32,000 nucleotides of DNA from Candidatus Odinarchaeota archaeon. GTDB taxonomy: Archaea > Asgardarchaeota > Odinarchaeia > Odinarchaeales > Odinarchaeaceae. This document shows positions 23,155 to 25,115 of the stretch, one piece after another. The stretch is from positions 1 to 32,000 of the forward strand of contig JAWBON010000004.1 of the NCBI GenBank assembly GCA_038826135.1, read 5' to 3'. Within the stretch, counting starts at the first letter, position 1; every line of letters starts with the position of its first letter. The position numbers were made by a program, and so were the translations under genes. The notes below the pieces were generated by a model. That model saw only the letters and a program-made list of their open reading frames with translations. It was not told where the DNA came from and made no database searches.

Positions 23155-24673
23155 CTAAGCCATAAGTTTGTTAATAGCTTCAATTATAGCTTCAACACCG
23201 GCAATCACTATATCTTCACTAGAACCTCTGGAGGTAAAAACCCTCTTATTTTCATCCTCGATTGTGACAACAGTCTCAGCGACGGCTTGAGTTCCCCCTG
23301 TTATCGCTTCTAATCTAAACTCTTTAAGTTTGAACGGCGCAACCTCCTCGCTTGCGTTTCTTATAGCGTTTATAGCAGCATCTATAGGACCCACACCGTT
23401 AGCTGCAACTATAACAGGTTTACCCCCTATGTGAAGTTTAACAGTGGCGGTGGGGTTTATCCTATTACCTGTAACCACTAGAATATCTTCAAGCTTAATC
23501 CTTTTCATATCCGGTGGCAGACTTTGAATAACCGCCCTAGCGATCGAACTTATATCCGCATCTGTAACCGTGATCCCCTTATCACCTAGTGATTTTATCT
23601 TTTCAACTATTATTTTTAACTGTTCAGGCGTGTATTTGAAACCTAAATTATCCAGGATTTTACCAACACCGTGACCTCCACTCTGCTTCCCTGCAACTAT
23701 CCTGCTTTTAGCCCCTATCTCCTCAGGCGATATGGGTTCATACGTCATAGGTGATTCTATAACACCGTGAGCGTGAATCCCACTTTCATGTGAAAAAGCA
23801 TTCTGGCCAACTACCGCCTTATTCGGAGCCAAAGGAATTCCTGTAATTCGCATTATTCTCTGGGAGGTTTCATAAATCTTCGAGTAATCTAGGTTAAGTT
23901 TAACCCCATACATGTATTTTAACGCTACAGCTACTTCTTCAAGAGAGGCGTTACCGGCTCTTTCTCCAAGACCGTTAACACAGCAGTGAGGTTGAACAAC
24001 CCCCTCCTCTATTCCAGCTAAAGTATTAGCCACCGCCAAGCCCATATCATTATGGCAATGTACAGAGATATTAGCTCTTGTAATGCTTTTAACTTCGCGC
24101 ACTATTTTTTTCATAGCTATCGGGATAGCTACACCTACAGTATCAGGTATATCAAGGTATGCGGCGCCGGCTTCGGAGACCTTTCTAAAAACCTCTTTTA
24201 AAAAGTCAAGTCTAGTTCTTGTAGCATCTTCAGCTGAGAATTCAACTTCTATTCCATGATCTCTGATATATTCAACAGCCCAGACCGCTCTCTCCACAAC
24301 CTGTTGGGGATCCATGTGCAGCTTATATTTCATGTGAATTTCGCTGGTAGCTATAAAAGTATGAATCCTAGATACACTGCAATCTATGGCTTTATCAATA
24401 TCCTCTTTCTTAGTTCTAGCTAAAGCGCATATTTTCGCTTTAAGCCCCTCATTAGCTATCTGCCTGACTGCTTTAGCCTCACCCTCACTTGCAATCGGAA
24501 AACCCGCTTCTATAACATCAACCCGTAGTTCATCTAGTAAATGAGCTATCTCTACTTTATCATCACTTGTTAAAGCAACACCAGGAGTTTGCTCACCATC
24601 CCTAAGTGTTGTGTCAAAAACATATATTTTTTCAGGTAAACTATCAAAGGAGAAAAATATTCCTCCACGCCAA
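23155..24673 (-). CDS. leuA: 2-isopropylmalate synthase; N-terminus requires a +1 frame change or correction near 24644-24655
   Basis: The frame of the track ORF continues upstream without a start codon through FDTTLRDGEQTPGV, IEAGFP, IHTFIATS; then EFSAEDATRT, HCHNDMG, NGLGERAGN and the C-terminal regulatory domain. GFP and HTFIATS favour LeuA over CimA. Confidence 0.9.
24644..24673 (-). promoter_or_regulatory. 9-codon ORF MAWRNIFLL* overlapping the leuA frame; candidate +1 frameshift cassette
   Basis: AGGTGTGGAAA TTG GCG TGG AGG AAT ATT TTT CTC CTT TGA; +1 frame reads TTC TCC TTT GAT AGT TTA CCT GAA. Confidence 0.5.
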
Positions 24674-24743
24674 TTTCCACACCTACCAGTATTATATCTT
24701 TAAAAACGGTGTCTAAAACAGTATATTAACCTTATTCCGGTGT

Positions 24744-25115
24744 TTAATTTAATCGTATAAGATGCGAGCCGCATTTACTCTCACAATCTGAGGAGCCGAA
24801 TCCTGGAATAAAAACCCCTAGCCCAGCTATTTTTTTAATAAAATCGCATTCACTCAGACATTGGCCTTCAATAATGCATAAACCTTTAATTTTAACATGA
24901 CTCGATGAGAGCAAATAGTCTATATGCCAGCGTGTTTTTTTACAGGCCCGTAAATGTCGTAAAACCCTATTCACCAGCTCAGAACCCCCTCTCTTACCTT
25001 TACCGGAGCCTACGTAAACGTATAATCCTTTTTTGAAATCCACTAAGCCGAGAGAACCTGTTTTAAGTTTGAACCCCTTACTAACACTTATTAAAAGATA
25101 ATATATCCCTTTCAA
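24744..25115 (-). CDS. GIY-YIG (DUF123/Uri-type) nuclease-family protein
   Basis: KGIYYL...GLYVYVGS...RVLRH...KKTRWHIDYLL...EC...GFGSSDC..C.SHL. Confidence 0.85.
   Translation of the reverse strand: MKGIYYLLISVSKGFKLKTGSLGLVDFKKGLYVYVGSGKGKRGGSELVNRVLRHLRACKKTRWHIDYLLSSSHVKIKGLCIIEGQCLSECDFIKKIAGLGVFIPGFGSSDCESKCGSHLIRLN

Follow-up and report, generated by a model that had tools for sequence, protein, structure and literature searches.

Among the closest described systems to the one considered here, the 5' end of the leuA gene on the minus strand of a 32,000-nucleotide stretch of an Odinarchaeota genome (hereafter the window), is that of prfB. As in prfB, a short 5' open reading frame (ORF) with a good start is followed by a gene body in the +1 frame, there is an internal element resembling a Shine-Dalgarno (SD) sequence ahead of the shift codon, and a ribosome that does not shift meets an early stop; the feedback logic would also be shared, the rate of shifting reporting the supply of a substrate of translation that is linked to the gene's own product. 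The two differ in that the slow A-site codon of prfB is UGA, which is read by the gene product itself, whereas in leuA it would be a sense leucine codon, CUC, with the stop two codons later. The SD-like element of leuA lies 6 nucleotides (nt) from the shift codon, a distance that is invariant in 25 loci, whereas the prfB stimulator acts at 3 nt in Escherichia coli, and the CUU_U of prfB is not conserved in leuA. To our knowledge Archaea have no RF2.

Shifts of the hungry-codon, Ty1 and influenza PA-X type, in which the P-site tRNA slips during slow decoding in the A site, resemble the proposed site at UUU_C, where the transfer RNA (tRNA) for phenylalanine can re-pair on UUC while a less-used sense codon occupies the A site. 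Those cases are viral, transposon-borne or laboratory constructs, and we know of none that acts as natural feedback on the pathway of the matching amino acid. A rise in frameshifting upon amino-acid starvation has been documented in E. coli (PMC5009743). Many relatives of the window's leuA have GUU or AUU in the P site, codons at which no re-pairing is possible, and in this they are more like Ty3 or antizyme. The antizyme gene (OAZ), for which P-site re-pairing is not required, is further alike in that a metabolite-sensing +1 shift controls the pathway of that metabolite; however, it responds to polyamines, and its shift takes place at a stop codon under stimulation by a downstream pseudoknot or by the nascent peptide, whereas no conserved downstream structure was found for leuA.

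Bacterial attenuation of leu operons by a leader peptide (leuL, Leu_leader in Rfam) likewise uses a tiny translated ORF ahead of leuA that needs charged tRNA-Leu to be decoded. The cassette described here differs in holding one conserved leucine codon and not a run of them, in having no terminator or antiterminator helices, and in giving no Rfam match at E<=1 for the leuA leader region; furthermore its short ORF overlaps the enzyme gene and would supply the enzyme's N-terminus instead of controlling transcription. We know of no established archaeal counterpart of bacterial attenuation for amino-acid operons. The fucA1 gene of Saccharolobus solfataricus is likewise a cellular gene of an archaeon that is divided between two overlapping frames and relies on recoding for its expression, but its shift is a -1 shift at an A-AAA-AAT heptamer accompanied by rare codons and a stem-loop, occurs in one strain and has no link to the enzyme's pathway. 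This is the only frameshift reported in Archaea according to a 2021 review of archaeal recoding, which mentions neither leuA nor leucine (PMC8211752); a 2016 review of frameshifting does not mention leuA, and no published description of a leuA frameshift was found in the literature on isopropylmalate synthase frameshifts or on programmed frameshifting in archaea and Asgard lineages.

The window is from contig 4 of a draft genome of 1.26 Mb (105 contigs, 93% complete); among named lineages, Candidatus Odinarchaeia and Candidatus Odinarchaeum yellowstonii are closest to it. The leuA frame, whose codons start at positions divisible by 3, is open from a TAA at 24702-24700 and contains no ATG, GTG or TTG down to an ATG at 24333-24331, which lies about 94 codons within the enzyme (the Asp of the DTTLRDGEQ motif is at 24615), in the catalytic barrel and without an SD. 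One base behind this frame stands a TTG at 24673-24671, with AGGTG (24684-24680) and 6 nt ahead of it, a geometry identical to that of the starts at 1275 and 2874 of the window. From this TTG the sequence reads TTG GCG TGG AGG AAT ATT TTT CTC CTT TGA, encoding MAWRNIFLL* with its stop at 24646-24644, and deletion of one T from the T5 run at 24657-24653 would give a continuous ORF from the same TTG. Everything that the first-pass annotation, made on the letters alone, had said at base level about the start-less frame and the displaced TTG proved correct. In this genome a spacing of 5-8 nt between AGGTG and the start is normal, and GGAGG mostly stands at 7-8 nt, with a mode of 7. Among 765 long frames of the genome, this is the only one in which a long stretch free of starts goes together with a short, SD-led ORF in frame -1.

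We consider it moderately probable (about 0.6) that leuA is expressed via a programmed +1 ribosomal frameshift; the ribosomal shift itself, its exact site and its efficiency are what we infer from sequence. Ribosomes would load at AGGTG-N6-UUG and translate M-A-W-R-N-I-F, bringing tRNA-Phe on UUU (24655-24653) into the P site with CUC in the A site. A fraction would then move forward by one base, from UUU to UUC, and read UCC UUU GAU onward to yield MAWRNIF-SFDSLPEKIYVFDTTLRDGEQ..., the full-length 2-isopropylmalate synthase; unshifted ribosomes would decode CUC in the old frame and reach a UGA stop two codons on. Between the internal GGAGG and UUU there are 6 nt, one short of the genome's modal 7 nt to a P-site start, and pairing with the tail of the 16S ribosomal RNA would favour the forward step, which would place TTC at 7 nt from GGAGG and relax the geometry between SD and anti-SD. 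In this manner, by a logic shared with prfB though at another spacing, the internal GGAGG probably helps the shift.

The product of the shifted frame scores 540.8 bits against the NCBIfam equivalog NF002086 (cut-off 532), with residues 22-513 covered, and its relatives carry PF00682, PF22617 and PF08502. Its best hit in Methanocaldococcus sp. 28A is a 519-residue paralog with an N-terminal extension (546 vs 481 bits; reciprocal), while a 491-residue paralog beginning MKVRIFDTT is the best hit of the genome's second paralog, par2 (498 vs 458 bits); the tree agrees with this assignment of the two to LeuA and CimA. From their lengths and N-termini we take the Methanocaldococcus paralogs to be the counterparts of MJ1195 and MJ1392, presumably of 518 and 491 residues. 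MJ1195 is LeuA and MJ1392 is CimA (PMC8305020). By these matches the window gene, which has both the catalytic barrel and the LeuA_dimer regulatory domain, is a 2-isopropylmalate synthase (LeuA) of the archaeal long form. Between the genomes of the genus, the ratio of non-synonymous to synonymous substitution rates (dN/dS) of leuA is 0.024-0.042 at a dS of 0.8-2.0, with synonymous sites near saturation, and the enzyme must therefore be under strong purifying selection. Past the junction of the two frames, substitutions number 104 synonymous to 112 non-synonymous when counted in the leuA frame, and 22 to 190 in the other frame.

Three further genomes of the genus, one of them closed (1,418,269 bp), have orthologs that are 90-92% identical to the window gene. 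The leuA 5' regions of the four genomes, which are independent assemblies, align without an insertion or deletion, the TTG, the nine-codon ORF and the position of the stop being kept in all, and the same frame structure is present in a second Odinarchaeia genus. Synonymous changes in the leuA frame begin at its first codon past the shift site (TCC, TCC, TCG and TCA across the genus). The main alternative raised in the first-pass annotation was a single extra T in the T5 run, by which an assembly error, strain lesion or pseudogene would have broken an ordinary leuA; the continuous ORF obtained on removing one T agrees with this, as does the draft state of the genome in 105 contigs. The T run is however not conserved, being T3 in two of the relatives (ATCTTTC and ACCTTTC), so that a homopolymer miscall is ruled out. 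Moreover the same frame structure is found in all four genus genomes including the closed one, in the second genus and in 20 further loci, and the dN/dS of 0.02-0.04 with saturated synonymous sites is not that of a pseudogene. This alternative is rejected, and we give it a negligible probability.

The same comparison refines the description of the cassette. Of the pair of leucine codons before the stop that the first-pass annotation had pointed to, and of the stop itself, only the first leucine codon (CTC) and the position of the stop are kept in the genus; the codon after CTC is CTT, CTT, GTT and ATT in the four genomes. A second candidate for the shift site, a CUU_UGA of prfB type, had to be abandoned as the conserved site on the same grounds, the relatives having GTT TAA and ATT TAA.

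Orthologs were surveyed in 400 genomes sampled from the phylum and found in 70. In most families LeuA has an in-frame start that precedes the Asp of DTTLRDGEQ by about 29 codons (M.EK..I.VS.MM...LPEK.YFFDTT); in six Asgard families a canonical start with an SD 5-8 nt ahead of it is found instead, one base behind the leuA frame. The cassette is also present in the second Odinarchaeia genus, in three contigs found via protein hits, in a Hadarchaeota metagenome-assembled genome (MAG) and in two metagenome contigs; the metagenome scan served as an unbiased outgroup sample only, with no close Odinarchaeia relatives among the matches listed. In total there are 25 LeuA loci in which the order is SD, start, RGG, exactly 6 nt, NTT and then the junction codon. 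Both the spacing of RGG-N6-NTT and the presence of an SD with a canonical start in frame -1 hold in 25/25, the latter despite divergence of the spacer sequences that separate the SD from the start. The junction codon encodes leucine in 22 of the 25 (CTC 10, CTT 10, CTA 1, TTA 1). The skipped base is C in 24, the lone T case being UUA and so still leucine, and the serine that follows it in the leuA frame is always TCN and never AGY. UUU_C is invariant in five Odinarchaeia genomes and occurs also in G111 and two genomes of family f19; elsewhere the site is GUU_C, AUU_C or UUC_C.

By comparison, an SD-led short ORF in frame -1 was found at 9 of 159 unselected archaeal LeuA loci, 5 of these 9 being beside a normal SD-led in-frame start; chance cases thus make up a background of about 3% in this sample. 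The layout of the window is more than chance, because it is unique among the 765 frames and rare in the 159 unselected loci. On the tree the layout stands at no fewer than 5 places, at least 6 state changes (gains or losses) being needed, a pattern that speaks for repeated selection or retention. As read from these sequences, the locus consists of two overlapping frames with initiation signals upstream and a conserved protein in the +1 frame, kept across species.

It is the homology of the short ORF that bears most directly on the frame in which LeuA begins. In-frame LeuA genes of other lineages start with closely similar peptides: Geocrenenecus with MAWRNMISGESKLPEK (MAWRNMIS..), Pelearchaeum with MAWKNLLQREYLLPER (MAWKNLL..), Caldarchaeum with MAWRRSLEYSLPSR (MAWRRSL..), two Thermoproteota MAGs with MVWRGYLTE and a metagenome contig with MAWKNFLKD. 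The predicted MAWRNIF-SFDSLPEKIYVF has 19 residues before the Asp, and the in-frame homologs have 18-20. In a codon alignment of the window with Geocrenenecus, one extra base, C 24652, stands between TTT and TCC. The Hadarchaeota hold both states, one locus (L158) being in frame (MRKEVFVSDF) and another (L122) having one extra base (MEMRRDGV then YVSEY). Upstream of the junction the leuA frame is closed in several relatives: in L009 a TAG directly precedes the conserved TTC, and L184, L036, L241 and five f19 genomes each have a stop that overlaps the start codon. What looks like a leuA-frame peptide, W.GGI, is a shadow cast by MAWRN in the +1 frame; in Geocrenenecus the shadow WLGEI, followed by a stop, accompanies a genuine in-frame MAWRN, and the position before GG is variously R, L, F, Y, H or a stop. 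On this evidence the short ORF is the predicted ancestral N-terminus of LeuA, homologous to the in-frame N-termini of other phyla. Three things decide the frame upstream of the junction, namely the initiation signals, the closed leuA frames of relatives and the homologous in-frame peptides, of which the last is the most telling.

The GGAGG near the shift, suggested at first as a possible stimulator, was followed through the same comparison. The motif, formed by TGG AGG, is present 6 nt ahead of TTT in the window and in 11/13 frameshifted loci of the M.WRN type, but in 0/6 in-frame homologs, where the same residue is encoded by AGA, AAG, CGT or AAA.

Alternatively, LeuA could start in its own frame at ATA 24660, a codon that is near-cognate or canonical in relatives, with GGAGG as the ribosome-binding site and with MAWRNIFLL as an overlapping upstream ORF, either regulatory or a relic of the old start. 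The 503-residue NCBI protein of Candidatus Odinarchaeum yellowstonii begins MPFSFNNLPEK, at ATA; the second Odinarchaeia genus (L182) has ATG at the corresponding codon, and an in-frame GTG stands one codon later in L183, L184 and L008. The ATA of the window is however only 1 nt after GGAGG, and starts of the form GGAGG-N1 number 0 in 1247 genome frames, where the mode is 7 nt. Its third base is free across 13 loci (A6 C5 G1 T1), as would not be expected of a start codon, and in L009 there is a stop right after the equivalent ATG, yet the N-terminal extension is under selection in the leuA frame. A conserved near-cognate start at a functional SD spacing was not found, the codon being ATH or ATG in the 13 M.WRN-type loci with GGAGG 1 nt away. 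The seeming leuA-frame peptide W.GGI is, as noted, a shadow of MAWRN, and the strong SD and canonical start conserved in frame -1 at 25/25 loci would be left unexplained. Finally, the ATA would be hidden under a ribosome stalled at the leucine codon, and regulation would then have the wrong sign. We therefore regard an in-frame start as unlikely, though it keeps appreciable weight. Reinitiation after the short ORF was also considered for this genus and rejected, there being no conserved start or near-cognate codon near the stop (TTA; ATA/GTA/GTC).

The frame break could also be corrected in the RNA, by transcriptional slippage on the T5 run at 24657-24653 or by editing that removes one base, so that the ORF runs on from TTG 24673. 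An MAWRN-led LeuA made in this way fits the homology as well as one made by ribosomal frameshifting. Known transcriptional slippage sites need longer runs, however; the run is T3 in two genus genomes, and there is no homopolymer at the junction in the f7, f3 and Hadarchaeota loci. We know of no such RNA editing system in archaea. Correction at the RNA level thus appears very improbable.

The proposal of a +1 shift by the ribosome has weaknesses of its own. That the real start is the out-of-frame TTG, linked to LeuA by a +1 shift at UUU_C as first suggested, has strong comparative backing; re-pairing on UUU as a rule for all the loci does not. The P-site codon is GUU or AUU in 12 of the 25 loci and UUC in 3; after a +1 step GUU and AUU onto UUC, or UUC onto UCC, would mismatch, and simple slippage can therefore not be the general mechanism. 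CUC accounts for 8% of leucine codons (8.3 per 1000) and is only moderately rare, CUU accounting for 23%. The 6 nt between GGAGG and the shift codon do not match the 3 nt of the prfB stimulator. Ahead of the junction the substitution counts (10:25 vs 10:19) come from too few sites to discriminate between the frames. The in-frame ATA that the MtrH-family gene of the genus keeps 4-6 nt after an SD, with no canonical start, also favours the rival ATA start, and the genes at L182 (ATG) and at L183, L184, L008 and L122 (GTG), with canonical in-frame starts near the junction, could be expressed without a shift. All of these points count against the proposed shift.

Structure gave no further guidance. 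RNAalifold on the four genus genomes returned a weak fold with no compensatory pairs at the leuA 5' end; a small GAGGAA/UUUCUC hairpin is invariant in the genus, which makes it uninformative, and is absent in other families. A search with aragorn allowing introns made 31 tRNA calls, including an implausible Leu(AAG), and is unreliable on intron-bearing tRNAs, so that the tRNA set was not used.

If the +1 shift is real, we would on balance expect it to become more frequent as the charged tRNA-Leu that reads CUY runs short, so that the end product would feed back on the committed first step of the leucine pathway. What points to leucine as the sensed amino acid is circumstantial, namely a leucine junction codon retained in 22/25 loci by way of four different codons and, in the CimA paralog, an isoleucine codon at the corresponding place. 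The genome's second paralog is an ortholog of CimA, which belongs to the isoleucine route. In 4/4 genus genomes it is preceded by GAGGT-N6-ATG AGG GAT TAT TTT ATT GGA TAG (SD spacing N6/7), a cassette that is out of frame and has Ile (ATT/ATC) where LeuA has Leu. In Methanocaldococcus cimA, an out-of-frame ATG AGG GAT is found just upstream of the start.

Several observations weaken the case for leucine sensing. The junction codon is CGT (Arg) in three f7 genomes; the overlapping codons of the leuA frame constrain two of its three bases; and conservation of leucine could be partly inherited, the in-frame homologs having Leu or Ile nearby. The CimA cassette, known from seven sequences, is recognisable outside the genus in f3 and one f16 genome, and CimA has an in-frame SD-led TTG overlapping the cassette, so that it need not shift. 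The wider possibility that LeuA and CimA, which stand first in the leucine and isoleucine branches, share in Archaea an ancient, repeatedly gained or lost "test-codon" device, in which a +1 shift is set by an A-site codon for the end product of the pathway, is put forward tentatively and we hold it to be somewhat doubtful; the ribosome itself would then sense the amino acid, and synthesis of the enzyme would rise as the matching charged tRNA ran short.

Table 1. Coordinates of the features at the 5' end of leuA and of the related CimA cassette (window positions unless a locus is named).
Feature	Position	Strand	Remarks
Putative TATA-like box TTAATATA	24722..24729	-	kept in 4/4 genus genomes (alignment)
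Second putative TATA-like box TTTTTAAAGA	24697..24706	-	conserved alignment block
Shine-Dalgarno AGGTG, 6 nt ahead of TTG 24673	24680..24684	-	SD and start in frame -1 kept at 25 loci
Short ORF MAWRNIFLL*, frame one base behind leuA	24644..24673	-	first 7 codons = proposed true LeuA N-terminus
Internal SD-like GGAGG (from TGG AGG)	24662..24666	-	6 nt before TTT, 7 nt before leuA-frame TTC
In-frame ATA, rival start	24658..24660	-	equivalent codon is the NCBI-annotated start in the closed relative
Proposed +1 shift site UUU C UCC	24649..24655	-	P-site UUU 24655-24653, A-site CUC (Leu) 24652-24650
Proposed skipped base C; first leuA-frame codon TCC	24652; 24651-24649	-	alignment with in-frame Geocrenenecus
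leuA body, predicted 2-isopropylmalate synthase, +1 frame including stop codon	23155..24651	-	NF002086, reciprocal best hit, dN/dS
First canonical in-frame ATG	24331..24333	-	within catalytic barrel, no SD; not a plausible start
CimA-type paralog cassette	L002:1430-1480 (G000 contig 21), with L073-L075, L076-L078		out of frame

Two TATA-like boxes precede the gene, following the end of a 123-codon ORF (24744-25115, minus strand) that lies directly upstream of leuA. A transcription start about 26 nt downstream of TTAATATA would give a leader containing the SD; if TTTTTAAAGA were used, the 5' end of the transcript would fall a few nt from TTG 24673, leaving it nearly leaderless. No leucine genes adjoin leuA in the window, and an aconitase-family gene (LeuC-type) follows leuA in the second Odinarchaeia genus and in the f6-like contigs.

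Other unusual 5' ends were seen in the course of the survey. At L034 (G345, f6) an extra SD-like mini-ORF, ATG CAA AGG AGG AAA TAA, stands about 30 nt upstream of the MAWRN cassette, and this leader may hold two tiny ORFs. At L117, from a Thermoproteota MAG, TGA TAG immediately precedes the opening of the LeuA frame, and the out-of-frame sequence GTG ATA GCT TGG AAC TAG (MIAWN*) ends at the junction; its relative L116, from another Thermoproteota MAG, has a normal in-frame ATG. A shift in L117 would be opposite a stop codon, not a leucine codon. At L097, from the Sulfolobales MAG JZ-1, LeuA is start-less after an in-frame TAG 8 codons before DTTLRDGEQ (GTG GTG GGC TAG GCT TCG ...); judged by its sequence this 5' end is interrupted in another manner, with stop read-through or some other recoding event as the candidates. 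The MtrH-family gene (PF02007; L086:261-1079, G000 contig 18, 13859-14678) has no ATG, GTG or TTG for 44 codons after an in-frame stop, and in 4/4 genus genomes (relatives L088-L090) its in-frame ATA stands 4-6 nt after GGAGAGG or GGAGGG; it probably uses AUA as its start codon. Only G000 has, in addition, an out-of-frame TTG AGG AGG GAA TAA at this gene.

For annotation, the arrangement matters in that gene callers truncate such genes or pick odd starts, the NCBI start at ATA in the closed Odinarchaeum being one case and starts inside the barrel the others; miscalled leuA starts mean that leucine biosynthesis can be mis-scored in metabolic reconstructions of Asgard and uncultured archaea. Archaeal ribosomes are close to the eukaryotic type, and the cassette's recurrence in distant lineages offers natural material from which the sequence rules for +1 frameshifting on them could be drawn. 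If the proposal is correct, leuA would be the first archaeal cellular gene with a programmed +1 frameshift and, in any domain, the first case of amino-acid feedback that works through programmed frameshifting. Such a shift would extend the logic of prfB and antizyme to charged tRNA as the sensed quantity, and would give a simple answer to the question of how archaea match the supply of an enzyme to the demand for its amino acid.

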